From positions 356,748,001 to 356,812,000 of the forward strand of contig OZ024740.1 of the NCBI GenBank assembly GCA_964016885.1: a stretch of 64,000 nucleotides of DNA, written 5' to 3'. The DNA is from Eledone cirrhosa. Lineage: Eukaryota. The stretch's first letter is position 1; each line of letters begins with the position of its first letter. The notes under the pieces are model-generated. The model was not told the DNA's origin. It made no database searches and saw only the letters and a list, made by a program, of their open reading frames with translations. The translations under genes were made by a program, and so were the position numbers. This document shows, one piece after another, positions 6,858 to 60,778 of the stretch.

Positions 6858-6916
<59 letters not shown>

Positions 6917-10470: not shown

Positions 10471-10515
<45 letters not shown>

Positions 10516-10518
<3 letters not shown>

Positions 10519-11155
10519 GGAAAAAGTGAAACGAAATTTCATTTCCCACTGTTAGTACGGCTGTTACTTAAATATAAGTATGTATACGTACATACATATA
10601 TGTATACAGACGTACAGTAGTATGTATATATATATACATACATGCACACATATATATATGCACGTATGGATTCACCGAGCATTTATTATAATGCTCGGTG
10701 TGTGTGTTTGTAAACAAACATCCCGTATTAAGCCGTAGTGTCTAGCAACCGCCGTTGCTCGTTTGTTCAACACTGACACAGGAACGCTGTACTAGTTTCA
10801 AGCTTGTTTGCTATCGTCAGCAACGTATACCTTCCTGCCAGATAGTTGAACGTCCGAAAGTATATACTTTCCTTATGCATATTAACGGCTGAGTAGCCCA
10901 ATTTGCATATCGAGTGGGTTAATCGGCCGGGTGCAGCGAAAACGATAAACGGAAAAAATGAAACGAAATCTCATTTCCCACTCTTAGTACGGCTGTTACT
11001 TAAATATAAGTATGTATACGTAAATACATATATGTATACAGACGTACAATAGTATGTATATATATATACATACATGCGGGATGTTTGTTTACAAACACAC
11101 CGAGCATTATAATAAATGTTTGGTGAATCCATACGTACATATATATATGTGTGCA
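10516..11155 (-). mobile_element. retrozyme-like tandem repeat (family R1, ~430-bp unit) with hammerhead and terminal inversion
   Basis: unit restarts at ~10516 and ~10948; hammerhead at 10784-10826; ATTTGCAT at 10901-10908; 11077-11140 is the reverse complement of 10660-10725. Confidence 0.8.
10784..10826 (-). ncRNA. type I hammerhead ribozyme
   Basis: ACGTTG CTGACGA TAGC-AAACAA-GCTT GAAA CTAG TA CAGCGT; canonical core, palindromic stem III, GUA site. Confidence 0.85.
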
Positions 11156-11220
11156 TGGCTATGACCTCATCAGGCAGTTAGTCAGTTCTTAGATATGTCA
11201 GCTGTGTGTTTATAGTGTTG

Positions 11221-11285: not shown

Positions 11286-11464
<179 letters not shown>

Positions 11465-13549
11465 AATTAAGTTAAAAATGTACATCTACATATGCATACT
11501 GAAATACTAGTATGCATATGAATACACACACGTATACATATGTAGATGTACCAAGTCTTTCACTGGTTACTTTACTGTGAGTAACCCAGCTATTCTGTAT
11601 GTAAACACACAGACAAACCGGTTTTTAGAGTCATACTGGTTTTCGAGGAAACGCCTTTCCTCTATTCTCCAGAAAGCCAGACAAGGAATATTGAACTAGT
11701 TTCGTTGTTGTTACAACTCATCAGCAATATTTACCTATCTACCGGCCTTTCTGGAGAATCGTAAAAGCACATATCGTTATATGCTTTTTCTATGAAAATT
11801 AGTAGGGCAATGTAAGATACATTCTCAGAGTATGCACATAGTTATTAGCTTCAATAAAACGGGTGCCTATAATAGTTCCCGGATTCGAGTTTCGGCCGCA
11901 CTTAATGCCGCAGTAAGGTGCACTGCACCATCCGTCAGCATATATTTTGCAACAATGCACAATCGGCTTATGCGGCTTCACCAGCGGGTATCGCCTAATC
12001 AATAACCAATCGATCGACAGATTCCAAACCCTAGCCCATGCCGGTCATGACTGTTTGTGACAACCGACACGGTAAAGCGACTATCAACTGGAACCCGATA
12101 CAACTCTGTCCCTCGACTAGCAACCGATTTACAAATTTTATGTTGTGGGAGAATAGAAAACCAATCTGTTCGTTCCCGTCAAAATGCGCTCAGCCAACGT
12201 GTCTCACACACAAATTAATAAGAGGTGAAAGTATGGTTATTAGAAATAGCAGTCCACATCGATGTATAATAGAATGGTAGCATTCGGCTCATGTCTCCAT
12301 GTCCCATGGGAAGAGGAAAGCGATAGTAACTATGGTAGTGCCAAGAACATTTAACGAACTTTAAATGCGATTATCCATTATAGAGCGATATAGTAGCGGG
12401 CTGGAATGTGTCAGCCGCGTGCGTAAAAAACAGTCTATTTCACAACTTAAAAGAGTATCGTTTAGTCACGAGTGCAGTAAGATTACATTTTGTGTGAAAT
12501 ACTATGTGTTTACGTAGTAAATGATAGTTAAAAGACTACCTATTACAAATGCTTCTCAAACATAAGGTCATACATAAGAATATCAAACATAAGGTCATAG
12601 CACTTGTCTCAAAGATTTGGGCAATTCTAAAATTTTTTTTTAAATCTGAAATGCACGCTTAAAATTTTCTACAGAAATAATATGCTGCTACAAAAGGAAC
12701 TTCAAACATCACTGGTGACAACTCACTACATTATACTAAAAGAAGAGAAATAAATAAAGAAATCTATAGAAATATATTTTTGTAAATAAGACAATAGAAC
12801 CGTGTGGAAATGGAAGCACCAATTGAAACATAAGTTTTAAATCTCCGAAGCCGTTTATGAAAGTATTGAAGAAGACAAGAAAACACACTTCGATCTTCTG
12901 ACGTGGAAGAGGCTCCTATCAGAAGAAACCGTCACCGAATCATCATTTTTCTTACCTGTTGTACAAATCTGGCTGGACACAGAACACTGCACAAACATTC
13001 TAAAAGTTCTATAGAGTTATGAAATAATACATATGAATAAGCCATAGATGACGAACATCATTAAGTAATGTCAGTTTCATGGGGAGATAAAACGCCTCTA
13101 TCCTTTTGAAGGAAAAAAAATAAAAATAAATGAGTATAAATCCTGGAAAACTGTAAGTCCGGTATTAAAAAAAAAAAAAAAAAATCACAAGGGATTGACA
13201 CTCCAAATTCACTATTCTCCTTTTATTTTGTCCACTTTTCAAATTAAATGACACGACGGTTCAGTTATATTCAAATATTGTAAGCGCGTCCATTGAGAAT
13301 ATCGTTACGTTGTTTGCGAAAATGTAAAACAAATCTTTATATCCCAGACAGAAATGTTGACTTTTATTACTAGATATTTGTCTGCTCGTGGATTTTGTAT
13401 TTCGCTCTATGTCTTCACCATTAACAAGAGGAAGGCAACGACGACAACAGTGTCATTAACAACAACAACTCTACCTTTAACAAGAGGAAGCCAACCCCAG
13501 CATCAGTTACTCAGCATCAGTGACTCACTGATGCTGGGGTTGGCTTCCA

Positions 13550-17029: not shown

Positions 17030-17820
17030 CTAAGAGTATTGCAATCGCTTGTCAGCTCCAGATGTGTGACGCTCGGATATGGCTTATCTAGCTTCCTTCG
17101 CACATTGATGACAGCTATGGATCTCCCTGGCCTTAGATCTTGCATCAGGTTGCCTGTAAACTTTCACAATACCGTGGATAACATTGTTCACTGGTTCCCT
17201 TTGAACATGGTTGCGACTGTGGCTCCTGAGACCAGATTTGCTCAAGCAAATCTTTCCACACTCAGGGCACACCAATTCAATGGAGACACCAATTATTTCG
17301 AGTGAGACACCAAGGCATTGCTTACGCACATCCCGTTTGATCTTTTCGTGTTCTATGCGTCTGTCCTCAAAATTATGGACCCCATGATTCACTATTCCAC
17401 GCCAAGTTTCTCTTTCAAGAGCTTCTATCTTCCAGTCACCCACAATCAAGCCAGTCATTTTCAATGAGTCCTTTACATAATCCTTGAATCATAGCTTTGG
17501 TTTGTGAGGTGGTTTCGTACCTTTACAAACTCGCCATACAAAGGTTGTTTCGGGATTCGATCGTCATCCATTCTGAAGAGGCATCCGGTCCCTCGCAAAC
17601 GCCGTTGGTGGATGATACTCTCAATGCTCCGACACTCACTGCTCTCAAGAACCTCAACATCACTCACATGCAACTACCACTTGAGATAGAGCATCTTTCT
17701 GAGAAACTGCTGCTGAAATAGTTCCAGTCTTTTGATATGCCGTTAGCAGGCAACCCAGTACACATGCGGCATACATTTTCACCTTGGTCTTCATTGTGAT
17801 TCCTCGCCTGCACCAAAGAC
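17030..17820 (-). mobile_element. older 5'-truncated RTE LINE (different subfamily)
   Basis: TKVKMYAACVL, HVSDVEVL, RMDDDRIPKQPLYGE, CPECGKICLSKSGLRSHSRNH; frameshifted. Confidence 0.8.
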
Positions 17821-17859
17821 ATACACATACATATAAGCACAAATACATGCATACATACA

Positions 17860-18451
17860 TGGTGGTGGCTGCCAATTCGTTTTCGAATACGGCCACTACT
17901 TTATATCCATGTAGGAGAACTCCTACCGATGCGCTGAACGAGTGTGACTTTTTAGTCCAGCCAGCGACTTGAAAACTCTGGTACAAACACTACACCTGTG
18001 ACAATTATTGACACATAGTGCTGGACCCATGGTACCATGTGACGACAAGTGCAGAACAGATCTCCAGATATAAAGCAATGCCTCTGTCGTGAAGCTTTTA
18101 TAGTGAGCAAAGGCACTGCACAAAGTCAGTCCCACTCTCTTAACCAAGATGATATTTACCAAAAAGAAGAACAAGTCAACATCATTGGATACCATCGGGG
18201 TTGCAGGTGTTATATCCTCCTAGAATTCTGCCTTGACAAAGGCTAAGAGGTCATCTCTCCCGGTGATTTTGGATGGCCATGGACTCTTAAGAGCTTCTTT
18301 GCCCTTTGACAGGTTTTGTTTTTAGTCCTGCAGGATATCCAAAGTCACCCTCCTCACCAAGAAACCTTGGTGGGGTTGGTCGCCAATGACCCGACCATGA
18401 GACAGGTTATACTGGGATACATGTACCAGTAGCACCAACTGGTGACCTGAC
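17860..18451 (-). mobile_element. bipartite non-autonomous RTE derivative (~600 bp), copy 1
   Basis: 5' part resembles the RTE 5'UTR (22540-22760); 3' part encodes CSVCTRVFKSLAGLKSHTRSAHR* and the RTE-like 3' end; (ATGT)n tail. Confidence 0.85.
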
Positions 18452-18544
18452 AAACATACATACATACATACATACATACATACATACATACATACATACA
18501 TACATACATACATACATACATACATACATACATACATACATACA

Positions 18545-18608
18545 TGATGGCTGCCCCCTCGTTATCAAGTATGGCCATTGCACGAGGAAAAAAAAACAAA
18601 AAAAAAAC

Positions 18609-18644
<36 letters not shown>

Positions 18645-18681
18645 AATGAAAAGAAAATAAAAAAAAGAAAAAAAAAGAGAA

Positions 18682-18712
<31 letters not shown>

Positions 18713-21700
18713 TATACATATACACACACATACACACACACACACACATACATTAATAACAATAATAATAATAATAATAACAACAACAATAATAATAACG
18801 ACAACAACAATAATAATATACATATACATATATATATATACACACACACGCACACACACAAGCATATCTACACACACACACACACACGATAGCAACTAAC
18901 AGCGCTGCGATCGAATGTGGCTTTTTAGCCCAGCCAATGATCTAAAATGTCTTGCACAGAGTCGGCAACCAAAACATTCACTGGGAATAGTCGGCTGTGG
19001 TTGGAGTTCGTGTACTTTTGCATGTCGCTTGAGCCCTCCTGCTGATTTACATTCTCTACCACATGTTTGGCAAGCATGATGAGTAGAATCTCGAACAGCA
19101 GCCTGGTAGTCAACCACTGGTCTTTCTTTATGACTGCGAAGATGACTTTCGAGTCCAGCTTTGCTTAGGCAGAGTCTCGCACATACGCTGCATGACAGCA
19201 CCATAGGAGGACCCTCGCCGTCTGGAAGTGCAACAGCAATGCCCTTCCTCACATCCCGCTTTACTTTCTCGTATGCGATACGAGATGCCTCAAAGGCAAC
19301 TTTTCCCTCATATACAGTCTTTCTCCATTTATTACGATCAGCAGCAATATTCTCCCATGTATCACCAGAGATGTTAGCGTCTTTCAGAGAGGCTTTCAAG
19401 GAATCCTTATACCTCTTTTTTGGTTTATATGGCGGTCGTTTTCCTTTAACCAACTCTCCATAAAAGAGTTGTTTTGGTATTCTAGAATCCTTCATCCTGG
19501 CAAGGTGACCACTCCAACGGTGTCGTTGCTTAAGCACAAGAGCTTCTATACTGTCACACATAGAGCTTTCCAAAATCTCGACATCACTGATGTGGTCCCT
19601 CCAGTGAACGCCATGGATCCGTCTGAAACACATCTGATGGAAACGCTCCAATTGCTTAAGGTGGTGTCGATATGTGACGCAGGTCTCGCAGGCATAAAGA
19701 AGACAAGAGAGCACACATGCCCTGTACACCTTTACCTTTGTCCTCCTGCATATGTCTCGCCGACCCCAGAGTCGCTTTTCTAGCTTTCCGAAAGCATCAC
19801 TTGCTTTCCTAATCCTAAGTGAGATTTCACTGTCAAGGTTGCTGTATCGATTGACAGTGCTTCCCAGGTAGACAAACTGATCAACCACTCCAAGTCGTTT
19901 GCCATACACATAGATGTTTGGTTCAGTGTACTGCTTGCCAGGGGCAGGTTGGTACATGACGACGGTTTTCTTGAGATTGACAGTCAGACCTAGGGCAGTG
20001 CAAGCGTCAGAAAATGCATTCAAAATGTGCTGCATATCACTCTCTGTGTGCGCTACAAGATCGCAATCATCTGCATACAAGAGGTCTCTTATGATTGATG
20101 TAAACACTTTTGTCTTCGCAGCAAAGCGCCTGATGTTAAATATGCTGCCTGAGGTTCGATATCGGATGTAAACACCATGCTCGCAATTCCTGAATGCAAT
20201 ACAGAAAACCATTGCAAAGTATATGGCAAACAGGGTCGGTGCTGGAATATCCCCCTGCTTCACTCCATTTTTACTGAGATAGGCTCCGACATGTTACCCC
20301 CGACATTAACCCAAGCCTTCATGTCGTCATGGAAAGACCTAACTAAAGCAAGGAACTTATCAGGGCAACCAAGTTTCTGGAGAACCTTCCATAATGCATC
20401 TCTGTTAACAGTATCGAAAGCTTTTGTCAGATCGACAAAAACCTGATACAGATCCAAGCCTTGTTCCATGCACTTCTCCTGGAGCTGTCTAGCTGAGAAG
20501 ATTATATCAGTAGTGCCGCGTCCAGCACGAAAACCAGATTGACTTTCAGGAAGAACACAATCTGCAATGTGTGTCAGCAGACGGTCCAGAAGCACCCTAC
20601 ATAAAACTTTCCCTACGACAGAAAGCAATGATATACCTCTGTAGTTCCCACAATCGTTCCTGTTACACTTTCCCTTGTACAAGACCACCATTACTGCATC
20701 TCTCCAGTCCTCAGGCACGGATTCATTAGCCCATATCCTGCCAAACAAAGAGTGAAGATGTTGCAGGAGTCTCTCACCACCATATTGTAGGAGCTCAGCA
20801 TGTATGCTAATCAATACCTGGAGATCTTCCACTGTTCAGCTTCGAAATAGCCACTGCAACCTCCACAAGCGTCGGGGGTTCTGCGAGAGCTACTTTCACA
20901 GGACTTTCTGGAATGAGATTGAGGAAATCTTCACTGACGACAGACGGCTGATTCAAAAGATCATGAAAGTGCTCTCGCCACCTTCGTAGAATTCCTTGTG
21001 AGTCACTAAGAAGTTCTTTGCCATCCTTGCTGCGAAGCGGTGTCACCAGAGAAGAAGACGGTCCATAAACCTCACGCAAGAGACTGAACAACAGCTTTGT
21101 GTTATTGGAATCAGACGCAATTTGTATCTCACCAGCCTTCTCACTCCACCACTGATCCTTCATCTGAGAAAGACTCCGCCTAACACGTGATTTTACATCC
21201 CTGAGTTCCTCATGCAACGTATTCCTCTCCTGTGGTTTTGCCGTCAAGTAGCGTGACAGAGCACGCCTCTTATCAGCCAAAAAGTCTTCTATATGTACAT
21301 CATTCTCATCAAACCAGTCCTGATGTTTCCTCTGCGCCAATCCCAGGACACGCCTGCCTACATCATAAACCGACTTTTTAAGGGTCGGCCAATCCTCACC
21401 AAGATCTGCAGCCTGCATCTCTTCTTCCAATGTCCTCTTCACATTTTTATCCTTAAGACGAGCAGCATTCAATCTTTTGGGCAGGGCAACACCAGGAGTC
21501 CGGATTTTACGTTTAGTGATTAGTTTCACTTTTGCGCGTACCAGGCGGTGGTCCGTCCAGCACTCAGCTCCACGAAGAACACGAACACACTGCACATCCT
21601 GTCTGTCACGCATCCTGACTAGGACGTAGTCCAAAAGATGCCATTCCTTAGATGCAGGATGCATCCATGTGGTCTTGAATTTGTTCTTTTGTTGGAACAT

Positions 21701-22800
21701 GGTGTTGGTAACACATAGATCCAGCTCCTCACACATCTGCAGCAGGAGCATACCATTGCTGTTACACTTTCCCACCGCATGCCTTCCGATTACATTCCAT
21801 GTGTTAAAATCTCTACCCACTCTAGCATTAAAGTCACCAAGCACGATGACTTTGTCTGCCTGAGGGATATTTCTTAAAACACCTTTCAAGGCATGGTAAA
21901 AGGACATCTTTTCCTCATCGACAGAACTCATAGTTGGAGCATACACACTCACCAGGGTAGCATATCTTCCCTTGTCCAGCGGAACTCTCATGGACATAAG
22001 ACGCTCACTAATACCTACTGGGAATTCTTCTAATTTGTTCACAAGCACAGTATTAACGGCAAATCCTACCCCAGCCTCTCTTCTGGTTCCTTCATCTCTT
22101 CCTTTCCAGAAGAATGTATATTCTCCACAAAATTCCGTAAGATTACCATCTCCAGCTAGCCTCGTCTCAGATAAAGCCACGATGTCAAGATCGTAACGTC
22201 GAAGCTCCTTTGCAACAAGAGCGGTCCTTCGTTCAGGACGCCCCAAGGAATCCCTGTCAAGCAGCGTCCGTACGTTCCAGCAGCCAAGACTAAATGCCTT
22301 GTTTGGCTCTATTACAATGGCACGATGACGAGCGGGCCCAGGCTGTGATAACCTGGGGCCCCTGCCCTTATTGCCAATGATATGTTTTGTTCCAGAACCT
22401 AAATTGCCAATTATCTCTTTTATATTGTTCTGGAACATCATTGAATTGGAAAAAAAAGAAAAAAAAAAAAAGTAATAATAATGGTAATAATAATAATAAT
22501 AATAGTACACTATTAATAATTATTAATGCACTCGTGCAATGCCTGTGCGTGACGAATATTTTTAAAGTGAGGAAAGACTGTGCACTGAGCCAATCCCACT
22601 CTCTGAGCGACAGTAGCTATAACCCGAAAAGAAGAAAAGATCAACATCATCGGTAACTACTGAGCCGCAGGTTTTATATCGGAGTTAACCCAGTTTCCTG
22701 AGATGCCTTCTCCTAGAAGAATGCCCTGACAAGGGCTAGGGGTTCTTCACTCCCAGTGGTTTAACTGCGCGATCGGGCATCCAGCCCGATTATTTCTATG
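18545..22800 (-). mobile_element. near full-length RTE LINE, copy 1
   Basis: 5'UTR, APE, RT, three zinc fingers, 3'UTR ending GGCAGCCATC(ATGT)n; two frameshifts near 20810 and 20265. Confidence 0.95.
18896..22440 (-). pseudogene. RTE ORF: apurinic endonuclease, reverse transcriptase, C-terminal zinc fingers (frameshifted)
   Basis: WNVRTL, ALSETR, VYAPT, GDFNAR, WTDH; NYRGISLL, QSGFR, FVDLTKAFD, KQGD, LYADD, YLGS; CxxC...HxxxH fingers. Confidence 0.92.
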
Positions 22801-23074
22801 TCCCCGCGCAAAAAAAAAAAAAAGAAATCACTTATTGACATTTATACGTACGACATACACACACACGCATACATATGCGCGCACACAGCAACACTCATAC
22901 ATACAAACAAACACACACACACGCTACTCTACTCACACGCACACACACACATATATATATATATATATTACCGTCATTACTGATACAAGATTACAAGATT
23001 ATGTCAACTGTTGACTTTCAAGAGTTTGTATAGTTGAAGCCGATCGTACTACAGTCCAGTATTATTATAATTGC

Positions 23075-23225
23075 TTTACAGCATAGAGTCACGGCCCTCC
23101 ACGCTCTGAGCTCAAATCCCGCCGAGGTCAACCTTGCCTTTCATCCCCACGGAGTCAACAAAAGAGAGTACCAGTGATGCGCTGGGCCAGTCGCTGGATC
23201 TGTGCCAAAAGCAGAAAAATTATTA
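23075..23225 (+). mobile_element. SINE (Nin/OK-like)
   Basis: GAGCTCAAATCC B-box-like motif followed by GAGGTCAACCTTGCCTTTCATCCC...GTACCAGT core. Confidence 0.7.
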
Positions 23226-23549
23226 TTAAAATTGTTTTCTTAAGGCCCGGTCGCTGGTGATGGTGATGGCGGCGGAGGTAGTGGTGGTGGTGGCAATTTA
23301 TGTTGTTGTTGTGTTGTGTGCGTGTGTGTGTGTGTGTTTTGTTATTTTGAGGTTTTGGGGGGGTTTTTTCTCTTCTTTTTCTTTTTTTTTTAAATCTTTT
23401 GATGCCGCTGTTGTTGTTGTTGTAAATGTTCATTTCAGTTCATTCTGAAGCTGTTGTTGCTGTAAACATTAGTGCCGGTGTGGTTGTTGTAGATGTTGGG
23501 GTTGAAATCTGGTCGTTTGACTGAGTGATGTATATACACACATATACAA

Positions 23550-23593
<44 letters not shown>

Positions 23594-24060
23594 TCAACAG
23601 AGAGTAGAGAGTTTGACAACAGGTCGATGACTTTAGTCTAGATAGGGTAATGACATGTGATGGTGGGGAGAGAGTGTAGAAGTTATTGTGGTGGCGGGGG
23701 TACAGTGCGATGTATCTAGTTCATTTGACCGTTTTCTTCTCTTTGAAAAATTTGAATTTTAGCCATGTTATATTGAGATGTAAGTAAATGTAAAATGTAA
23801 AATATAAATAAGGATTGCTCTGCTAAAATATACTAAAAATTTGTGTAACTTCCACAAACTTCTGTCGTGACATTCCCGAGTCCAGTGACCAACATATTGT
23901 TGTATTTTGATGTTTCAGAATACAAAAATTAATTAAAAACTTACTCCACGAAAAGACAGCGTGTGTTGTCCTATCTATAAGCCACCTCATACATACATAC
24001 ATACATACATACATACATACATACATACATACATACATACATACATACATACATACATAC

Positions 24061-24662
24061 ATGGTGGCTGCCAACTCGTTTTCGAGTACGGCCACTACTT
24101 TATATCCATGTAGGAGAACCCCTACCGATGTGCTGAACAAGTGTGACTTTTTAGTCCAGCCAGCGACTTGAAAACTCTGGTACAAACACTACACTTGTGA
24201 TAATTATTGACACATAGTGCTGGGACCATGGTACCATGTGACGACAAGTGCAGAGAGATCTCCTGATTTAAAGTAATGCCTGTGCCGTGAAGCTTTTATA
24301 GTGAGCTGCACAAAGCCAGTCCCACTCTCTTAACCAAGATGATATTTACCAAAAAGAAGAACAAGTCAATATCATTGGATACCATCAGAGTTGCAGGTGT
24401 TATATCAGAGTTTTCCACCTCCTAAAATTCTGCCTTGACAAAGGATAAGGGGTCATCTCTCCCGGTGATTTTGGATGGCCATTGACTCTTAAGAGCTCCT
24501 TTGCCCTTTGACAGGTTTTGTTTTTAGTCCTGCAGGATGTCCAAAGTCACCCTCCTCACCAAGAAACCTTGGTGGGGTTGCCAGTTTAGTAGCCAATGAC
24601 CCGACCATGAGACAGGTTGTACTGGGATACATGTTACCAGTAGCACCAACTGGTGACCTGAC
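24061..24662 (-). mobile_element. bipartite non-autonomous RTE derivative, copy 2
   Basis: highly similar to 17860-18451; (ATAC)n on both sides. Confidence 0.88.
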
Positions 24663-24726
24663 ATACATACATACATACAAACATACATACATACATACAT
24701 ACATACATACATACATACATACATAC

Positions 24727-24809
24727 ATGATGGCTGCCCCCTCGTTATCGAGTATGGCCATTGCACAAGAAAAAAAAAAAAATAAATAAATAAAATTAAA
24801 AAAAAAAAA

Positions 24810-24844
<35 letters not shown>

Positions 24845-24868
24845 TAAAAGAAAAAAAAAAAAAAAGAA

Positions 24869-24917
<49 letters not shown>

Positions 24918-24985
24918 CATACATATATACATACACTCATACATACACATACACTCACACATATATACACACATACATTAATAAC

Positions 24986-25022
<37 letters not shown>

Positions 25023-25101
25023 GCAATAATAATAATAACGACAACAACAATAATAATATACATATTGATATATATATACACACACACGCACGCACATAAG
25101 C

Positions 25102-25147
<46 letters not shown>

Positions 25148-28100
25148 TAGCAACTAACAGTGCTGCGATCGAATGTCGCTTTTTAGCCCAGCCAATGATC
25201 TAAAATGTCTTGCACAGAGTCGGCAACCAAAACATTCACTGGGAATAGTCGGCTGTGGTTGGAGTTCGTGTACTTTTGCATGTCGCTTGAGCCCTCCTGC
25301 TGATTTACATTCTCTACCACATGTTTGGCAAGCATGATGAGTAGCATCTCCAACAGCAGCCTGGTAGTCAACCACTGGTCTTACTTTATGACTGCGAAGA
25401 TGACTTTCGAGTCCAGCTTTGCTTAGGCAGAGTCTCGCACAGACGCTGCATGTCAGAACCATAGGAGGACCCTCGCCGTCTGGAAGTGCAACAGCAATGC
25501 CCTTCCTCACGTCCCGCTTTACTTTCTCGTGTGCGATTCGAGATGCCTCAAAGGCAACTTTTCCCTCATATACAGTCTTTCTCCATTTATTACGATCAGC
25601 AGCAATATTCTCCCATGTATCACCAGAGATGTTAGCGTCTTTCAGAGAGGCTTTCAAGGAATCCTTATACCTCTTTTTTGGTTTATGTGGCGGTCGTTTT
25701 CCTTTGACCAACTCTCCATAGAAGAGTTGTTTTGGTATTCTAGAATCCTTCATCCTGGCAAGGTGACCACTCCAACGGAGTCGTTGCTTAAGCACAAGAG
25801 CTTCTATACTGTCACACATAGAGCTTTCCAAAATCTCGACATCACTGATGTGGTCCCTCCAGTGAACGCCATGGATCCGTCTGAGACACATCTGATGGAA
25901 ACGCTCCAATTGCTTAAGGTGGCGTCGATATGTGACCCAGGTCTCGCAGGCATAAAGAAGACAAGAGAGTACACATGCCCTGTACACCTTTACCTTTGTC
26001 CTCCTGCATATGACTCGCCGACCCCAGAGTCGCCTTTCTAGCTTTCCGAAAGCATCACTTGCTTTCCTAATCCTAAGTGAGATTTCACTGTCAAGGTTGC
26101 CATATCGATTGACAGTGCTTCCCAGGTAGACAAACTGATCAACCACTCCAAGTCGTTTGCCATACACATAGATGTTTGGTTCAGTGTACTGCTTACTAGG
26201 GACAGGTTGGTACATGACGACAGTTTTCTTGAGACTGACAGTCAAACCCAGGGCAGTGCAAGCGTCAGAAAATACATTCAAAATGTGCTGCATATCACTC
26301 TCTGTGTGCGCTACAAGATCGCAATCATCTGCATACAAGAGGTCTCTTATGACTGATGTAAACACTTTTGTCTTCGCAGCAAAGCGCCTGATGTTAAATA
26401 TGCTGCCTGAGGTTCGATATCGGATGTAAACACCATGCTCGCAATTCCTGAATGCAATACAGAAAACCATTGCAAAGTATATGGCAAACAGGGTCGGTGC
26501 TGGAATATCCCCCTGTTTCACTCCATTTTTTACTGAGATAGGCTCCGACATGTTACCTCGACATTAACCCAAGCCTTTCATGTCGTCATGGAAAGACCTA
26601 ACTAAAGCAAGGAACTTATCAGGGCAACCAAGTTTCTGGAGAACCTTCCATAATGCATCTCTGTTAACAGTATCGAAAGCTTTTGTCAGATCGACAAAAA
26701 CCTGATACAGATCCAAGCTCTGTTCAATGCACTTCTCCTGGAGCTGTCTAGCTGAGAAGATCATATCAGTAGTGCCGCGTCCAGCACGAAAACCAGATTG
26801 ACTTTCAGGAAGGACACAATCTGCAATGTGTGTCAGCAGACGGTCCAGAAGCACCCTACATAGAACTTTCCCTACGACAGAAAGCAATGATATACCTCTG
26901 TAGTTCCCACAATCATTCCTGTTACCCTTTCCCTTGTACAAGACCACCATTACTGCATCTCTTCAGTCCTCAGGCACGGATTCATTAGCCCATATCCTTC
27001 CAAACAGAGAGTGAAGATGTTGCAGGAGTCTCTCACCACCATATTGTAGGAGCTCAGCATGTATGCCATCCATACCTGGAGATCTTCCACTGTTCAGCTT
27101 CGAAATAGCCACTGCAACCTCCACAAGCGTCGGAGGTTCTGCGAGAGCTACTTTCACAGGACTTTCCGGAATGAGATTGAGGAAATCTTCACTGACGACA
27201 GATGGCTGATTCAAAAGATCATCAAAGTGCTCTCGCCACCTTCGTAGAATTCCCTGTGAGTCACGAAGAAGTTCTTTACCATCCTTGCTGCGAATCGGTG
27301 TCACCAGAGAAGAAGACGGTCCATAAACCTCACGCAAGAGACTGTACAACAGCTTTGTGTTATTGCAATCAGACGCAGTTTGTATCTCACCAGCCTTCTC
27401 ACTCCACCACTGATCCTTCATCTGAGAAAGACTCCGCCTAACACGTGATTTTACATCCCTGAGCTCCTCATGCAACGTATTCCTCTCCTGTGGTTTTGCC
27501 GTCAAGTAGCGTGACAGAGCACGCCTCTTATCAGCCAACAAGTCTTCTATATGTACATCATACTCATTAAACCAGTCCTGATGTTTTCTCTGCAGCAATC
27601 CCAGAACACGTCTGCCTACATCATAAACCGACTTTTTAAGGGTCGGCCAATCCTCACCAAGATCTGCAGCCTGCATCTCTTCTTCCAATGTCCTCTTCAC
27701 ATTTTTATCCTTAAGACGAGCAGCATTCAATCTTTTGGGCAGGGTAACACCAGGAGCCCAGATTTTACGTTTGGTGATTAGATTCACTTTTGCGCGTACC
27801 AGGCGGTGGTCCGTCCAGCACTCAGCTCCACGAAGAACACGAACACACTGCACATCCTGTCTGTCACGCATCCTGACTAGGACGTAGTCCAAAAGATGCC
27901 ATTCCTTAGATGCAGGATGCATCCATGTGGTCTTGAATTTGTTCTTTTGTTGGAACATGGTGTTGGTAACACACAGATCCAGCTCCTCACACACCTGCAG
28001 CAAGAGCATACCATTGCTGTTACACCTTCCCACCCCATGCCTTCCGATTACATTCCATGTGTTAAAATACCTACCCACTCTAGCATTAAAGTCACCAAGC

Positions 28101-28755
28101 ACGATGACTTTGTCTGCCTGAGGGATATTTCTTAGAACACCTTTCAAGGCATGGTAAAAGGACAGTTTTTCTTCATCGACAGAATTCATAGTTGGAGCAT
28201 ACACACTCACCAGGGTAGCATATCTTCCCTTGTCCAGCGGAACTCTCATGGACATAAGACGCTCACTAATCCCTACTGGGAATTCTTCTAGTTTATTCAC
28301 CAGTACAGTCTTAACAGCAAATCCTACCCCAGCCTCTCTTCTGGTTCCTTCATCTCTTCCTTTCCAGAAGAATGTATATTCTCCACAAAATTCCGTAAGA
28401 TGACCATCCCCAGCTAACCTCGTCTCAGATAAAGCCACGATGTCAAGATCGTAACGTCGAAGTTCCTTTGCAACAAGAGCGGTCCTTCGTTTAGGACGCT
28501 CCAAAGAATCCCTGTCAAGCAGCGTCCGTATGTTCCAGCAGCCAAGACTAAATGCCCTGTTTGGTTCTATTACAATGGCACGATGACGGGCGGGCCCAGG
28601 TTGTGATAACTTGGGGCCCCTGCCCTTATTGACAATGATCTTTTTTGTTCCAGAACCCAAATTGGCAATTATCTCGTTTACATTGTTCTGGAATATCATT
28701 GAAGTGGGAAAAAAAAAAAAAAAAAAAAAAAGTAATAATAATAGTAATAATAATA
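24727..28755 (-). mobile_element. RTE LINE, copy 2 (5'UTR missing)
   Basis: closely similar to copy 1; TGG>TGA stop at ~26963 and indels at ~26555-26577. Confidence 0.95.
25154..28700 (-). pseudogene. RTE ORF (APE-RT-zinc fingers), disrupted
   Basis: same motifs as copy 1 across ORFs 26963..28837, 26564..26950 and 25154..26551. Confidence 0.92.
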
Positions 28756-28812
28756 CATACATACATACATACATACATACATACATACATACATACATAC
28801 ATACATACATAC

Positions 28813-29422
28813 ATGGTGGCTGCCAACTCATTTTCAAGTACGGCCACTACTTTATATCCATGTAGGAGAACCCCTACCGATGCGCTGAACAAGTCTGACA
28901 TTTTAGTCCAGCCAGCGACTTGAAAACTCTGGTACAAACACTACCCTTGTGATAATTATTGACACATAGTGCTGGGACCATGGTACCATGTGACGACAAG
29001 TGCAGAGAGATCTCCAGATATAAAGTAATGCCTGTGCCGTGAAGCTTTTATAGTGAGCAAAGGCACTGCACAAAGCCAGTCCCACTCTCTTAACCAAGAT
29101 GATATTTACCAAAAAGAAGAACAAGTCAACATCATTGGATACCATCAGAGTTGCAGGTGTTATATCAGAGTTTTCCTTCTCCTAGAATTCTGCCTTGACA
29201 AAGGCTAAGGTGTCATCTCTCCCGGTGATTTTGGATGGCCATTGACTCTTAAGAGCTCCTTTGCCCTTTGACAGGTTTTGTTTTTAGTCCTGCAGGATAT
29301 CCAAAGTCACCCTCCTCACCAAGAAACCTTGGTGGGGTTGCCAGTTTAGTCGCCAATGACCCGACCATGAGACAGGTTGTACTGGGATACATGTTACCAG
29401 TAGCACCAACTGGTGACCTGAC
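28813..29422 (-). mobile_element. bipartite non-autonomous RTE derivative, copy 3
   Basis: same ~610-bp unit between (ATAC)n tracts. Confidence 0.88.
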
Positions 29423-29515
29423 ATACATACATACATACATACATACATACATACATACATACATACATACATACATACATACATACATACATACATACAT
29501 ACGTACGTACGTACT

Positions 29516-30124
29516 TGGTGGCTGCCAACTCGTTTTCGAGTACGGCCACTACTTTATATCCATGTAGGAGAACCCCTACCGATGCGCTGAACGAGTGTGA
29601 CTTTTTAGTCCAGCCAGCGACTTGAAAACTCTGGTACAAACACTACACTTGTGACAATTATCGACACATAGTGCTTTGCCTTTGGTACCATGTGACGACA
29701 AGTGCAGAGAGATCTCCAGATATAAAGCAATGCCTGTGCCGTGAAGCTTTTATAGTGAGCAAAGGCACTGCACAAAGCCAGTCCCACTCTCTTAACCAAG
29801 ATGTTATTTACCAAAAAGAAGAACAAGTCAACATCATTGGATACCATCAGGGTTGCAGGTGTTATATCAGAGTTTTCCTTCTCCTAGAATTCTGCCTTGA
29901 CAAAGGCTAAGGGGTCATCTCTCCCAGTGATTTTGGATGGCCATTGACTCTTAAGAGCTCCTTTGCCCTTTGACAGGTTTTGTTTTTAGTCCTGCAGGAT
30001 GTCCAAAGTCACCCTCCTCACCAAGAAACCTTGGTGGGGTTGCCAGTTTAGTCGCCAACGACCCGACCATGAGACAGGTTGTACTGGGATACATGTTACC
30101 AGTAGCACCAAGTGGTGACCTGAC
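29516..30124 (-). mobile_element. bipartite non-autonomous RTE derivative, copy 4
   Basis: same unit, head-to-tail with copy 3. Confidence 0.88.
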
Positions 30125-31899: not shown

Positions 31900-32391
31900 C
31901 ATCCTACTAAAACACTCTGGCCACCTGTGGCTTGTATGTTAACTTGACCACTCACCCCAGTCTGTGCCATGATTCGGTCTTGTTAAATGTTTAATTTCTA
32001 TTACCAACCCACCTAAAAAATTTCCCTACTATATATCTGTTGAATTACTATTCTTGGGGTTTTTATTTACTTATTTTTTATTTATTTCTTTATTTATTTT
32101 ATTTATTTATTCATTTATCTATTTATTTATTCATTTATTTATTTATTTACTTATTTATTTATTTCAAAAAAGCACTCTGGCTAATTGACCACTCCCCATA
32201 GAAAAAAACGGCCTGTGCCATGAAGTGTTCCTGTGTATCTAAATACCCTCCCCCCCCATCCACCACCCCTCCCTTGCCACTACCTAAATGTATAAATACC
32301 AGAACTTAATATGACACCCAGCTTCCTGAAGATTCCATCTGAATGAAACAGTACTAGTCCTGTAGAAGCTCCTTCTATAAAATAAAATAAA

Positions 32392-32395
<4 letters not shown>
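31900..32395 (+). mobile_element. PLE-like 3' end with hammerhead
   Basis: TATAAATA at 32291, hammerhead at 32320-32370, AATAAA repeats, then (TA)n. Confidence 0.55.
32320..32370 (+). ncRNA. type I hammerhead ribozyme
   Basis: AGCTTC CTGAAGA TTCCATCTGAAT GAAA CAG-TACTAGTC-CTG TA GAAGCT; perfect 6-bp stem I, paired stem III, GUA site, weak stem II. Confidence 0.8.
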
Positions 32396-32445
<50 letters not shown>

Positions 32446-32452
<7 letters not shown>

Positions 32453-34150
32453 ATACTTTGGGAGGGTCATAGCTAACTTATTCATGGTATGGTGGGACAG
32501 TAGACTTAAACTTAAAGAACAATTAGAAGACCCCTTAACCCTGATAATGTACTCCCGCTACGTAGATGATAAAAACATCGTAGTTAAGACACCCCCACTA
32601 GAGAACAGTCAGGAACTAGAGAAAAACACAATGGAAAGCATCCAGCAAATAGCAAACTCCATCCACCAGAGCATTAGAGTTACTATAGACTATCCAAGTA
32701 AACACCCCAACCATCGATTACCTGTACTAGACACAGAGCTCTGGTTAGATACCATTAACAACAAAAAACAAATCCTCCATTCCCATTATGCCAAACCCAT
32801 GACTTTCAAACATCTGATCCACCGAAACTCGGCCATTTCGGACCATACCAAAATCAACATACTGATTGCGAATTTGGTACGGGTGATGAGAAATGTGTCC
32901 CGCGTGTGCAACCCCGAAGAACTAGAGAGACACATACAACACTTCATCCACCGTATGCAGTTCTCTGGCTACAGTCAGAGAGATAAAATCAGAGTGTATA
33001 AAGGAGCCAGAACCAAATGGGAAAAAATGGTAAATAATGACATAAATGAGACCTGCCCCTTGTATAGGAGCAAATTTTGGAATAGAATAGAAAGAACTAG
33101 GAACAAGGCTAATAGAATAAACTCATGGTATGATAGCAATAAATACCAGAGTGTAATGTTCATCGATACAACCCCTAGAGGTGAATTAGCTTACAAATTT
33201 AGAAGGGCCCTAAATAAACATAAACTCAATATTAAGATAGTAGAAAGACCAGGTACCTCCATAAAAACACTTATTAGCAAGACATACCCTTTTCAAAGAC
33301 CCTCATGTATAGATAAGAAATGTATAACCTGTAAAATAAGCCGCCATATTAACTGTAAAACTAGAAATGTAGTGTATAGCATAAGATGTACTGAAGGATA
33401 ATGTAGAGACAAAAATATAGTGTACATAGGTGAGACAGCTCGTAGTGTAGGGGAACTGATAAATGAACACTGGCGAGATCTTCAAGATAATAAAGAATCA
33501 TCTGTACTCTACCAACATGCAAAAATAGAACACAAGGGTAAATTAGAGAACATAGAAATAAAAATAGAATCTACACACAGAAAAGACGCAATGTTTAGAC
33601 AAATTACAGAGGCAATAAACATAAAAGAATTACAACCAAAATTAAATAGAAAATATGAGTGGAACAGCAACATCACAACTTACAATTAAGGACAAAATGA
33701 AAACACACACAGATATAGAACAAACAACCAACCAGTAACATGTAAATAAACAAATAAATAAATAAATGAACATAAACACACACAGACACCCGGATGTGGT
33801 GCATGCGCAGACTGAGCACACAACACACACACAGAAACAAAATGGCGTAGGACAGAACAAAGGAGAGGCACAGAAACAAAGAAAGGAATCCCCAGTCACT
33901 GAAGAGGTCACAGAGTGTGTGACGAAAGAACTATGACTATATATAAACAACTATCTGGTTGTGAAACCAACCAACCAACCAGAAATTTATAAATTTATAA
34001 ACTTATAAATTTATAAATATATAATAAATTGAAGTGAAAGCAACTGGTGCGTGTGTTTCTTATTGGCAACATGACCCTCCCAAAGTATAACAATATCGGT
34101 TTCAACACACGATTTCAGATAAAGAATCTTGCTAAACAAATTCAGAAACG

Positions 34151-34152
<2 letters not shown>
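32446..34152 (+). mobile_element. PLE family A, second 5'-truncated copy
   Basis: RT C-half plus GIY-YIG nearly identical to 4689-5910; CAA>TAA stop at 33399; 25-bp inverted terminal piece at 32446-32470; 3' pLTR 33690-34152; (TA)n flanks. Confidence 0.93.
33894..33938 (+). ncRNA. type I hammerhead ribozyme (PLE family A)
   Basis: AGTCA CTGAAGAG GTCACA-GAGTG-TGTGAC GAAA GAAC TA TGACT. Confidence 0.75.
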
Positions 34153-34225
<73 letters not shown>

Positions 34226-34275: not shown

Positions 34276-34337
<62 letters not shown>

Positions 34338-34488
34338 CAGGTACACATACATATATGTACGTATCAGTTTAGCGGACGCTTATTATAACGCCCGCTTTGT
34401 TCGTTTGTAAACAAACTGAACAGCCTGAAGCTATGCCGTACGGTGTTAAGGCAACCACGTCACCTTTTTGTTCAACACTGACACAGGA

Positions 34489-34531
34489 ACGATGTACTAG
34501 TTTCAAGCTTGTTAGCTATCATCAGCACCGT
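34489..34531 (-). ncRNA. type I hammerhead ribozyme
   Basis: ACGGTG CTGATGA TAGC-TAACAA-GCTT GAAA CTAG TA CATCGT. Confidence 0.87.
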
Positions 34532-34767
34532 ATACCCTTCTGCCAGATGGTTGAACGTTCGAAAGTATATACTTTCCTTATGAAAATTAACGTCTGAGCA
34601 GCCTAATTTGCATATAGAGTGAGTTAAATCGGTCAGGCGTACCGAAAACGATAAGTTGTAATAAAATGAAAACGAAATTTCATTTCTCACTCTTAGTACG
34701 GCACTTACTTAAATGTAAGTATGTATGTATACGTACATACATATATGTATACAGACGTACACTAGCA

Positions 34768-34809
<42 letters not shown>

Positions 34810-35245
34810 TACAGGTACACATACATATATGTACGTATCAGTTTAGCGGACGCTTATTATAACGCCCGCTTTGTTCGTTTGTAAACAAACTGAACAGCTT
34901 GAATTTATGCCGTACGGTGTTAAGGCAATCACGTCACCTTTTTGTTCAACACTGACACAGGAACGATGTTCTAGTTTCAAGCTTGTTAGCTATCATCAGC
35001 ACCGTATACCCTTCTGCCAGATGGTTGAACGTTCGAAAGTATATACTTTCCTTATGAAAATTAACGGCTACTGTACGTCTGTATACATATATGCTACTGT
35101 ACGTCTGTATACATATATGTATGTACGTATACATACATACTTACATTTAAGTAAGTGCCGTACTAAGAGTGAGAAATGAAATTTCGTTTTCATTTTATTA
35201 CAACTTATCGTTTTCGGTACGCCTGACCGATTTAACTCACTCGAT

Positions 35246-35296
35246 ATGCAAATTAGGCTGCTCAGCCGTTAATTTTCATAAGGAAAGTATATACTT
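35246..35296 (+). promoter_or_regulatory. putative snRNA-type promoter (octamer, PSE-like box, TATA)
   Basis: ATGCAAAT at 35246, TCAGCCGTTAATTTTCATAAG, TATATA at 35288; octamer is 88 nt upstream of the hammerhead core in the R1 units that retain it. Confidence 0.5.
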
Positions 35297-35327
35297 TCGA
35301 ACGTTCAACCATCTGGCAGAAGGGTAT

Positions 35328-35370
35328 ACGGTGCTGATGATAGCTAACAAGCTTGAAACTAGTACATCGT
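35328..35370 (+). ncRNA. type I hammerhead ribozyme
   Basis: ACGGTG CTGATGA TAGC-TAACAA-GCTT GAAA CTAG TA CATCGT. Confidence 0.87.
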
Positions 35371-35521
35371 TCCTGTGTCAGTGTTGAACAAAAAGGTGAC
35401 GTGATTGCCTTAACACCGTACGGCATAAATTCAGGCTGTTCAGTTTGTTTACAAACGAACAAAGCGGGCGTTATAATAAGCGTCCGCTAAACTGATACGT
35501 ACATATATGTATGTGTACCTG

Positions 35522-35581
<60 letters not shown>

Positions 35582-35693
35582 TGCTACTGTACGTCTGTAT
35601 ACATATATGTATGTACGTATACATACATACTTACATTTAAGTAAGTGCCGTACTAAGAGTGAGAAATGAAATTTCGTTTTCATTTTATTACAA

Positions 35694-35809
<116 letters not shown>

Positions 35810-40720: not shown

Positions 40721-40825
40721 ATATATATATATATATACTAATTAAAGATGAATTAGTCTCTAATACTTCAGCATCTCAATGCATGGCTTGTGTTCCCAAA
40801 AACAGAGTTTCTTCTATCAATAATA

Positions 40826-41412
40826 TCAATAATAATTGCTTCTACTTTTGGCACGAGTCCAGCAATTTCCCCCAGTGTATTACTGGTAATTTATTTTATC
40901 GAACCCGAAAGGATGAAAGGCAAATCTAACCTCGAGAGGATTTGAAGTAAAACTGTAAAGGGCCATAGCTCTATGCTGCAAAGTATGGTGTATAACGCTC
41001 TACCGATACTGCCAACCACCGCCCTATCAATAATAATTGTTTCTACTTTTGGCACAAGGCCAGCAATTATCCCAGTACATTACTGGTACTTTATTTTATC
41101 GACCCCGTAAGGATGAAAGGCAAAGTTAATCTCGGCGGGATTTGAACTCAGACCATAAAGTGGCGTAACTCTATGCTGCAAAGCATGGCGCCCGACCTTC
41201 TACCGATACTGCCAACTATCAATAATAATTGTTTCTATTTTAGGCACAAGGCCAGCAATTACCCACTACATTACTGGTACTTTATTTTATCGACCCCGTA
41301 AGGATGAAAGGTAAAGTTAACCTCGGCGGGATTTGAACTCAGATCATAAAGGGACGTAACTCTATGCTTCAAAGCATGGTGTCTGACTCTCTACCGATAC
41401 TGCTAATCCACC
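40826..41412 (-). mobile_element. head-to-tail trimer of SINEs (~195-bp units)
   Basis: TCAATAATAATTG.TTCTA...CTGGTACTTTATTTTATCGACCCC...GGATTTGAACTC repeated three times. Confidence 0.85.
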
Positions 41413-47000: not shown

Positions 47001-48304
47001 ACATTGATATAAGCTCATGCTTTCAGCGATATCTAAAGATAATTTGAACGGTACAACTGATCGAATCTCAAGAAACCGGCACCTGTTTTTTTGTATTTTT
47101 TTTTATTGACGATATCGAAGAACATACATCGGTGGCTGATAAAATAACTGCAATCACAAATTGTAAGTAAATATTACAAGTTCGAAATTATTATATAATG
47201 TAATTAAAATAATTCTTCTCTAAAACTTGACATTTGAATTTCAATTCTAGTTCCATATTAAAATAAAAAGGTTTTCCTTTTAATCCAGCAGGTGTTGTAG
47301 TCTTGAAGCTGCCGAAGGGTTTTTAATTGTATCTGAAACTTAACATTTAAATTCCAATTCCTCTGGTTCAATAGTTTTTAAAAGGGTAGTATTTGCCTAA
47401 ATAGTTTCTGCTGCGTTAAACTTGCTACATTTAAAACTGATTATTACGCATAACAGTTTTGCTTTTACCAACACAATTTTTTTTCTTAGTTAAAATGTTG
47501 CTTGTATTTATTCAATCATAGAAGACAAAGCTTCTCTATTAACAACATATATACGTACTCCCACGTACCTATTCTTTGCTAAAAAAAAATTCTGAGAATG
47601 TTACAAATGAAAAAGAATATAACTTTCACAAAATATTCAGAAATATTGAAATAAATAACAAGATAGATAACTTCGATCATGTTACTTATGTGACCTTTAC
47701 TATATTTTGTGAGTTGGAGGCAAGTATGTTAACAGCGATCAACAAAAATAGCTGCGAAAAAGATAAAAGAAATAAAACCTACAAATATTAAAAGGAAACG
47801 AAGACAGTGAAATAATATCAAAATAAATAGATAGTAATTCAACTTACTGGAAGGGAAACAAATAATTTAGAAACATTGGAAATGACAATTTCTTTCATTT
47901 GTTCTCTAAAATATCAACTGCCGTAAGCTATAGACAAACTGATAAAGATAGACATAGTCATATTGTGCTTAACTGACAGAAGGGTTCACACATGGTAAAA
48001 CTACCTTAAAGCGCTAAATAACCCAGTATCTAGCTCAATTGAATGAAGGACACTGAAAGTTAGAGTGTCACTCGACAGTGAAAAAGAAGGGGTTCTAGAA
48101 TTTAAGATTGGGAGATCAAGTAAGACAGGAGTGATTGGAATGAATGGGAGTGCAGAGATTGACGCGTGGGTTTTGATCAATGGTATGGTGTGGAAAATAG
48201 ACAATAAAGTAACATCTTCATTAAAATATATTAAATTGGAATTTAGTGCGACTATTGTTTTATATTACTCTAAAACATTATTTAGAGGTTTGAGAATTGG
48301 CAAT

Positions 48305-48480
48305 ATCAGTAGAAGGTCGGACGCCATGCTTTGCAACATAGAGTTACGCCCCTTTATGGTCTGAGTTCAAATCCAGCCGAGGTTCACTTTGCCTTTCATC
48401 CTTACAGGGCCGATAAAATAAAGTACCAGTAATGTACTAGGGTAATTGCTGGCCTTGTGCCAATAGTAGAAACAATTATT
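48305..48480 (+). mobile_element. SINE (same family as 40826-41412)
   Basis: GAGTTCAAATCC...CTTTGCCTTTCATCCTTACAGGGCCGATAAAATAAAGTACCAGT. Confidence 0.85.
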
Positions 48481-49897: not shown

Positions 49898-49959
<62 letters not shown>

Positions 49960-49964
<5 letters not shown>

Positions 49965-50345
49965 GTAATAAACAACATAAGATAATTATTTCATTTACCA
50001 GTGGTTTCTTGAAAGCAAAAGAAATTTGCTTTCAGTCATCAGAATGAAAAGATCCTGGTGTATTTATTGACAGTAGATTTTAAAAAAGTTTTTTTTTTAA
50101 ATCCACTGTCAATAAATACACCAGGATTTTTTCATTCTGATGACTGAAAGCAAATTTCTTTTGCTTTCTAAAATCCACTGACAATAAATACACCAGGAAT
50201 TTTTCATTCTGATGACAAACCAAATTTCTTTTGCTTTCAAGAAACCACTGATAAATGAAATAATTATCTTATGTTGTTTATTACATAACTATTAAGCTCT
50301 GTAACCTACATAGAGCACTCTTTTTTCCTGGACTTTTCCGACTTC

Positions 50346-50350
<5 letters not shown>
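49960..50350. mobile_element. fold-back PLE-like end with hammerheads
   Basis: inverted arms about ~50088 with an internal duplication and a ~60-bp one-sided extension; (TA)n flanks. Confidence 0.8.
49989..50049 (-). ncRNA. type I hammerhead ribozyme
   Basis: TTTCATT CTGATGA C TGAAAGCAAA-TTTCT-TTTGCTTTCA A GAAA CCA-C-TGG TA AATGAAA; damaged plus-strand copy at 50202-50260. Confidence 0.8.
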
Positions 50351-50433
<83 letters not shown>

Positions 50434-50434
<1 letters not shown>

Positions 50435-50911
50435 GTTTTTCGAATATTAATAATATTCGGTTCGCTTGCAATTATGCAAACAGCCTTTTTAAACCCTATC
50501 AGTAGAATGACACCATCATTCTTGCTCTTGTGTTGGCATATAAACAAAACGGCTGACACTAATATTTCTGGGTGAATATCCTTCATCAGTACCGTATACT
50601 GTTTACCTGCCAACTGTCAGAGCGAGTGAAATTATATATTTTCTGAAATATACAGTGACTGATCGGCCTGATTTGCATATTAGCAGACGTCTGATCAGTC
50701 AGATATGCATATTAGAAGACCCACGGATCAGCCAGATTTGCATATCAGCAGATAGGCCACTCAGATTTGCCATATTTAAATAAGAAACAAATAGTTTTAT
50801 CGCTCTGCATGCCTGAATACAATAAATGTAATCTGAGTTTTCGAATATTAATAATGATATTCGATTCGTTTGCAATTATGCAAACAGCCTCTTGAAGCCA
50901 TGTCAGTAGAA
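50434..50911 (-). mobile_element. retrozyme-like repeat, family R2 (~400-bp unit)
   Basis: direct repeat restarts at 50434 and 50836; hammerhead core at 50550-50595 (ACGGTA CTGATGA...GAAA TAT TA); octamers at 50671 and 50736. Confidence 0.65.

Positions 50912-56805: not shown

Positions 56806-60778
<3,973 letters not shown>

Follow-up and report, generated by a model that had tools for sequence, protein, structure and literature searches.

R2 is a repeated element at positions 50434 to 50911 (minus strand) of a 64,000-nucleotide stretch of DNA from Eledone cirrhosa. This stretch, here called the window, lies in the 3.0-Gb assembly GCA_964016885.1 (contig OZ024740.1, positions 356,748,001 to 356,812,000, forward strand). 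R2 is probably a retrozyme without long terminal repeats (non-LTR), with an internal promoter of the small nuclear RNA (snRNA) type that would be read by RNA polymerase II (Pol II). The promoter module itself is very likely real, and its reading by Pol II, as opposed to RNA polymerase III (Pol III), is favoured with less assurance. Judged from its sequence, the module is a hybrid: its octamer is the word of the host's Pol III genes, and its ATCAGT word and the distance from ATCAGT to the TATA run are those of the host's Pol II genes. Four further families, R1, R3, R4 and R5, have the same layout.

The window copy of R2 and its parts are as follows.

50434..50911, minus strand: R2 insertion, one unit and about 74 nt of a second unit; decayed.
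50658..50752, minus strand: 33-bp repeat in 2.9 copies, each with an octamer-like word and an ATCAG-like word 15 nt later.
50736..50743, minus strand: distal octamer, exact.
50703..50710, minus strand: middle octamer-like word, one mismatch.
50671..50678, minus strand: proximal octamer; together with its flanks it fits the upstream element seen in U6, U6atac and MRP genes of the host (16.1 bits).
50658..50663, minus strand: ATCAGT, the core of the host U1, U2, U4 and U5 word at -55 to -59.
50628..50643, minus strand: A/T-rich near-palindrome centred on TATATA (50638-50633).
50608, minus strand: predicted transcription start, an A, 30 nt after TATA and 55 nt after ATCAGT, placed by host spacings.
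50533..50613, minus strand: type I hammerhead with extended stem I (with internal loop), stem II and a short stem III.
50589-50583 and 50568-50565, minus strand: hammerhead core CTGATGA and GAAA; predicted cut after 50555.
50434..50507, minus strand: start of the second unit, a direct repeat of about 50911-50838.
50481-50465 and 50459-50441, minus strand: two hairpins in the start of the second unit.
50349..50434: (TA)n microsatellite adjoining the 3' end of R2; the usual flank of R2 copies.

The initial annotation had read an octamer, ATCAGT, TATATA and CTGATGA on the minus strand, and they are found there at 50678-50671, 50663-50658, from 50638 and at 50589-50583. Its distances hold as well, with 89 nt from octamer to core and 49 nt from TATA to core in the window copy, and 88 and 46 nt in three R1 copies. 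The extra upstream octamers that it listed (50743-50736 and 50710-50703) both belong to the 33-bp repeat, which is likely a multiplied block of enhancer plus proximal sequence element (PSE); the ATCAGT at 50658..50663 would likely be the PSE of the proximal block. By itself the octamer occurs at chance level in the window (7 seen, 6.9 expected). The predicted start falls in the 5' arm of hammerhead stem I. At the place of TATATA, most R2 copies have CATATA.

The R2 unit is a dispersed, non-coding repeat of 438 bp with a GC content of 38.6% and a longest stop-free stretch of 74 amino acids. An R2-specific pattern has 1,220 exact matches in the genome and none for the control, so there are at least 1,220 copies. 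A DNA search with R2 returned 3,575 candidates; among the 40 scored, the main matches are 79-89% identical. Sixty copies were collected, 30 for their resemblance to the window copy and then 30 more with the octamer and core pattern, so that estimates of motif conservation are biased in both sets. Thirty copies average 85% alike and the closest pair reaches 92%, which indicates that the sampled copies are old. The window copy, which shares 91% identity with a majority sequence drawn from 30 copies, is probably inactive, and the value of the feature is that of a testable promoter model. Some R1 copies are 99% identical to their own majority sequence.

Copies of R2 mostly span 1 to 1.6 units, and 15 of the 30 module-selected copies exceed one unit. 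At least seven of the 60 loci have two hammerhead cores one unit apart with nothing coding between them; the window copy has one core. R1 arrays also hold repeated cores. The preserved spacing claimed for R2 is true of the window copy and not of the family: octamer and core are 92-93 nt apart in 39 of 60 copies and 89 nt apart in 9, and TATAWA is present in 11, with a CATATA-type variant in most others.

Models of host promoters were built from the genome's own snRNA genes, with near-identical copies collapsed. Pol II promoters more than 75% alike were merged, which reduced 45 loci to 14 and then 13, with 12 for the 3' box. The U6 tandem array was collapsed to one. Left out were the U6 loci L044 and L045 and a group of six represented by L037 (no octamer within 100 nt), and five of the six U6atac loci (probable retrocopies without promoter words); U4atac was unclear.

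Host Pol II promoters are uniform. All 14 promoters of U1, U2, U4 and U5 have ATCAGT at -55 to -59 (11 exact), 13 have a TATA-like run near -30, and most have, by eye, AATTA near -88. The TATA-like run comes 23-30 nt after the ATCAGT-type word, and the set has a clear 3' box, whose top-scoring site is where expected in 11 of 12. The five host Pol III promoters (U6, U6atac and MRP) all have an octamer-type word at -76 to -78 and TATA at -30, 46-48 nt apart; ATCAG was found in none of them. In U11, U12, U3 and RNase P, inspection by eye shows variant forms of the Pol II word without an octamer. In the RNase P RNA gene (L254, 1390-1500) ATCAGT is present without an octamer, unlike in MRP, and in this animal RNase P RNA may be transcribed by Pol II.

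The TATA-like run near -30 is therefore common to both host classes, which differ in their upstream words and distances (L031-L095, L126, L132, L213, L246-L253). In human snRNA promoters TATA marks Pol III, a TATA box after the PSE selecting that polymerase according to the account in PMC6004067. In this host TATA does not mark Pol III, because Pol II snRNA genes carry a TATA-like run too.

A combined model of PSE and TATA, with the gene's own class left out, locates the site correctly in all 13 host genes; in host Pol III genes the same slot never scores above 4.4 bits. The window copy of R2 scores 20.2 bits, and none of 119,168 background positions is as high. When the U2 promoter closest to it is left out it scores 17.1 bits (1 background position as high), and with all U2 promoters left out 15.5 bits (3 positions). 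The TATA-like run of R2 lies 25-28 nt after the ATCAGT word, where the host Pol II range is 23-30. Across the R1 and R2 subfamilies the PSE-like word is 55, 57, 58 or 59 nt from the predicted A, inside the host range.

The octamer belongs to the other class. With its flanks it scores 16.1 bits in R2 and 18.6 in R1, compared with 15.8-18.9 in host Pol III genes, and none of 119,488 background positions reaches 14. The TATA run is 40-43 nt from it in all five families, as against 46-48 nt in host Pol III genes, and at 46-48 nt the TATA score is negative in both R1 and R2. The module is called a hybrid because its octamer scores as a Pol III word and its TATA run is not at the Pol III distance. 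Given that distance, it is not the plain promoter of U6 type that the octamer-PSE-TATA label of the initial annotation suggests.

A type 3 Pol III promoter, like that of U6, producing a short RNA that ends at a T run, is nevertheless an alternative to Pol II. The Pol III-level octamer would be expected of it, as would the clean TATATA of R1, R3, R4 and R5 and the human rule on TATA after the PSE. The distance from octamer to TATA, which differs from that of all five host genes, and the TATA-like run of host Pol II genes speak against it. So do T runs: all seven subfamily sequences of R1-R5 have sense-strand runs of four to seven T within the unit. T runs end Pol III transcripts, although a single T4, as in the window's R2 subfamily, can be leaky. 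Pol II is favoured since T runs in every family would stop Pol III within one unit, before the next hammerhead. Pol III transcripts could not carry a full unit, yet half of the module-selected copies are longer than that. Type 3 Pol III transcription is thus considered unlikely.

Neither R1 nor R2 has a significant 3' box. The best R2 sites reach 7.0 and 5.9 bits, levels with a background frequency of 6e-4 to 1e-3 per position, and host genes score 9.7-19.8 against their own model. One R2 candidate, plausible by eye, was dropped as not significant against background.

The ribozyme part of R2 folds as a type I hammerhead, with core, three stems and an extended stem I, in 52 distinct copies. The alignment covers 54 of the 60 loci; three were missed by the pattern and three with insertions or deletions were excluded. 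Bases pair in 94.6% of 1,396 cells, whereas slid controls pair at 28-47%. Two-sided changes occur in 24 cells, compared with 9.0 +- 3.8 in shuffles (0 of 500 as high), a count that kinship among copies inflates. Seven pairs have a two-sided change, which 30 of 500 shuffles match. The most informative compensatory cases are two subfamily-level pair swaps in stem I. The hammerhead call rests on manual folding because an Rfam scan of the window gave no family at gathering score.

The foldable hammerhead on which the initial annotation depended is thus found in the family, compensatory pairs included. Its remark that the stems of the window copy look degenerate was apt: compared with other copies, stem I is mismatched at its base, stem II has one mismatched pair and stem III contains a wobble. 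Despite lesions in all three stems, the region folds stably (z -4.5).

Evidence that the module defines a class of elements comes from the other families. R1 is present in the window at two places.

34317..35698: R1 cluster, with copies at 34784-34317 (minus), 35069-34791 (minus) and 35082-35542 (plus) and a partial copy at 35565-35698 (plus).
10513..11157, minus strand: R1 copy of a second subfamily, 11075-10607 with a partial tandem and a short inverted piece.

The spaced pair of octamer and core occurs 22,420 times in the genome and 55 times for the reversed control, an enrichment of the kind that had been predicted; the occurrences are repeat copies and not independent events. The modules of R1 and R2 align with a score of 56-58, where shuffled means are 17.5-19, and the downstream part (about 130 nt) with 41-57, where shuffles give 20-22; in neither case did any of 200 shuffles do as well. 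Their upstream parts are unrelated (129-132 of 200 shuffles as good). The earlier statement that the rest of R2 cannot be aligned to R1 is therefore correct for the upstream part alone. Since module and downstream part align, R1 and R2 have a common ancestor.

This kinship affects the claim that conserved words and spacing reveal a promoter-ribozyme class. The claim gains from the host-matching words, the enriched pair and the five families with one layout, but the agreement of R1 with R2 could by itself reflect descent, as the two are related. The comparison of R2 with R4 and R5 is better evidence. A pattern made of an octamer variant and the hammerhead core only has 647 matches and none for the control, and these include R3, R4 and R5. 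Copies of the three families were taken from 32 of 100 listed places, picked by eye for family likeness, and from 14 of 20 loci. TCA or CCA stands at +15 to +18 and TATATA at +43 in their majority sequences, and the search pattern included neither. An A follows TATA by 30 nt in R1, in the window's R2 subfamily, in R3 and in R4, and by 31 nt in another R2 subfamily; R5 has no A at 30 nt.

R3 stands between R1 and R2 in sequence. R2's spacers cannot be aligned to those of R4 or R5 (66 and 92 of 200 shuffles as good), and other pairs are weakly linked. Taken together, R1-R5 probably form a single old lineage whose words would have outlasted the surrounding sequence. Locus L117, first taken for a chance match, proved to be a member of R5.

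In R1-R4 the TATA run is the centre of a palindrome (window 50628-50643 and 35282-35297), with matching two-sided changes between R1 and R2.

Other hammerhead repeats in the window have no octamer, and the promoter module is thus not universal. One such repeat lies beside R2 at 49957-50350 (core 50042-50036, minus strand), with an inverted partner, a 72-bp internal repeat and no octamer upstream; relatives occur in L014 and L205. Another, of type I, is found at 11460-11900 (minus strand, core 11724-11718). It has a weak likeness to R1 in the ribozyme and TATA region and no recognisable octamer, and is possibly a decayed sixth family.

The ends of R2 copies provide information about their mobilisation. 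The 3' ends fall at unit positions 130-188, counted from the cut site, in 47 of 60 copies (130-143 in 30, 156-188 in 17), positions that are somewhat blurred where alignments run into (TA)n. The same range holds for 22 of the 30 module-selected copies, and none of the 60 copies ends at the cut site. In the window copy, the second-unit stretch 50434..50507 stops just short of the commonest 3' end of the family. The 5' ends are variable, and an inverted 5' partner is present in 29 of 60. R2 thus has Penelope-like ends: the 3' ends cluster inside the unit, the 5' ends vary, and inverted partners and a (TA)n flank occur.

Penelope-like elements are described with partial tandems, inverted 5'-truncated partners and (TA)n targets in PMC8557442, and with internally started reverse transcription in PMC11167929. 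R2 shares the partial tandems, inverted partners and (TA)n targets, and an internal start of its copying is likewise predicted; unlike these elements, it encodes no protein and has no sequence in common with those that were checked. Those copies that exceed one unit and span the cut site are compatible with a circular template or with an uncut multimeric one.

Three Penelope-like elements lie in the window.

4240-6920: Penelope-like element with one frame of reverse transcriptase and GIY-YIG, both domains below the Pfam cut-off, and an inverted terminal repeat with a hammerhead-like motif.
32391-34160: frame without Pfam match, judged Penelope-like by eye.
57085-59442: frame without Pfam match, judged Penelope-like by eye.

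R2 might then be the detached pseudo-LTR of an unrecognised autonomous Penelope-like element instead of an independent retrozyme, an explanation that is very improbable. Its end geometry would fit, and a preprint on retrozyme origin (10.64898/2026.07.22.740005) argues that vertebrate retrozymes derive from pseudo-LTRs. The genome search for GIY-YIG gave 10,596 candidates, of which 150 were scored. Against the explanation, R2 and R1 occur once each in the 1.5-kb flanks of 30 of these 150 loci, on the opposite strand and about 1.2-1.5 kb away. None of the three window elements has an octamer or any meaningful stretch in common with R1-R5, and the loci with two cores one unit apart contain nothing coding between them.

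Some further observations concern insertions in and around R2. A 190-bp repeat resembling a short interspersed element (SINE) is found in about 10 of the 60 R2 loci (L009, L012, L020, L023, L028, L135, L145, L152, L158, L160), and is also listed at window positions 40824-41412 and 48290-48480. Where the far junction could be read, R2 resumes past the insert at about unit position 104, in an A/T hairpin, with duplications of varying length. The pattern may reflect a recurrent target site or template switching. In one locus (L130, 1380-1500) a U6atac-like copy adjoins an R2 fragment in opposite orientation. The window also contains, at 17802-30067, several copies of a long interspersed element (LINE) with endonuclease- and reverse transcriptase-like frames and zinc-finger-like tails, as judged by eye.

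A number of findings weigh against an internal snRNA-type promoter read by Pol II. TATAWA is missing from 49 of 60 R2 copies. The R2 majority sequence is weaker than the window copy, at 11.4-13.9 bits; its leave-out values are no more than 11.4-12.4 bits, which 19-21 of 119,168 background positions reach, and 12 of 30 copies have their best site in the first 33-bp repeat and not in the proximal one. R1 is weak, with 7.6 bits, rank 4 of 560 positions and 191 of 119,168 background positions as high. The host's upstream Pol II word, AATTA near -88, is by eye not present in R2, which has the octamer at -70 to -74 instead, and the hybrid layout occurs in none of the 12 host RNA-gene kinds examined. 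In the hammerhead of R2, positions 10.1 and 11.1 are A and A, and unpaired. No autonomous partner sharing R2 sequence was found in the small sample of 30 GIY-YIG loci and the window elements. Shared words are not independent in related families. Finally, the palindromic TATA run could be kept as an RNA hairpin, and the promoter model leaves the palindrome unexplained.

Some of these points would also suit an explanation in which the words are no working promoter and were kept by descent, RNA structure or protein sites, with RNA supplied by host read-through. R1, R2 and R3 are clearly homologous, a circular fold of the R2 unit pairs the TATA run as a hairpin, the window has hammerhead repeats that do without an octamer, and the Pol II word, a short one, is weak in R1. 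Set against this, the spacing of three words is kept in families that are no longer similar in their spacers and hammerhead stems. Two of these words correspond to host promoter words, with background rates near 1e-4 or lower, and R2 has triplicated exactly the block of octamer and ATCAG. That the words are no promoter is accordingly improbable, more so than transcription by Pol III.

With an internal promoter read by Pol II, the life cycle of R2 could run as follows. SNAPc and a POU factor would bind ATCAGT and the octamer, and Pol II would start at the A inside stem I, 19 nt before the core (16 nt in R1). Without a strong 3' box, transcription would continue through the next unit. Cleavage by the hammerheads would follow about 54 nt past the start and once more a unit further on, releasing a 438-nt monomer that would hold the whole promoter and could circularise. 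A Penelope-like reverse transcriptase and endonuclease would start at an internal site 130-190 nt after the cut, copy at least one unit and place it in (TA)n. New copies would each be self-transcribing, because the released unit would carry the whole promoter.

The design has a precedent in newts. Newt satellite 2 was the subject of work by Coats, Zhang and Epstein in 1994. Its promoter reportedly uses an octamer and a PSE. A newt satellite with an snRNA promoter is cited in PMC2220036 and is read by Pol II according to the account in PMC6765202; like R2, where this is predicted, it is a hammerhead repeat with an internal snRNA-type promoter. As described there, the newt case differs from the present one, which has five families, a TATA-like run, a Pol III-type octamer and the host's own PSE word. 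In the Sm-alpha repeats of Schistosoma, too, each unit has a promoter and then a hammerhead, as predicted for R2, and monomers are cut from multimers (as described in PMC6765202). Sm-alpha is reported there as a Pol III element, whereas R2 has an snRNA-type layout.

The metazoan non-LTR retrozymes of PMC7229834 have, like R2, a type I hammerhead and a non-coding, low-GC unit of a few hundred bp, and Penelope-like elements are proposed in that paper as their mobiliser. They form long arrays, by that description, whereas R2 copies are short; circular RNA has been shown for them and could form from R2. The main text of PMC7229834 describes no internal promoter, using the word promoter twice, both times for T7 constructs, and the word is absent from a 2026 preprint on retrozyme origin. 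No invertebrate retrozyme with such a promoter was found in the literature searched, which was without subscription papers, Repbase and the supplement of PMC7229834. The present case adds calibration on the host, a hybrid layout, several families and a prediction of the start base.

The genome offers a precise model that can be tested: it names the starting base, the polymerase and three promoter words, and there are young R1 copies, as much as 99% alike, to try it on. The grammar of the host's snRNA promoters is also useful for expression tools of the U6 type. Retrozyme RNAs are reported to be abundant in all tissues examined, and the retrozyme papers compared name no transcribing machinery. 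It is conceivable, if at present doubtful, that an internal snRNA-type promoter that tracks the host PSE is a general and ancient part of animal retrozymes, hybrid in this genome and kept through at least five family radiations. If so, it would explain abundant retrozyme RNA in all tissues, and the Pol II snRNA machinery would be driving a mobile element. A start inside the ribozyme would then mean that each cut monomer or circle carries a full promoter.
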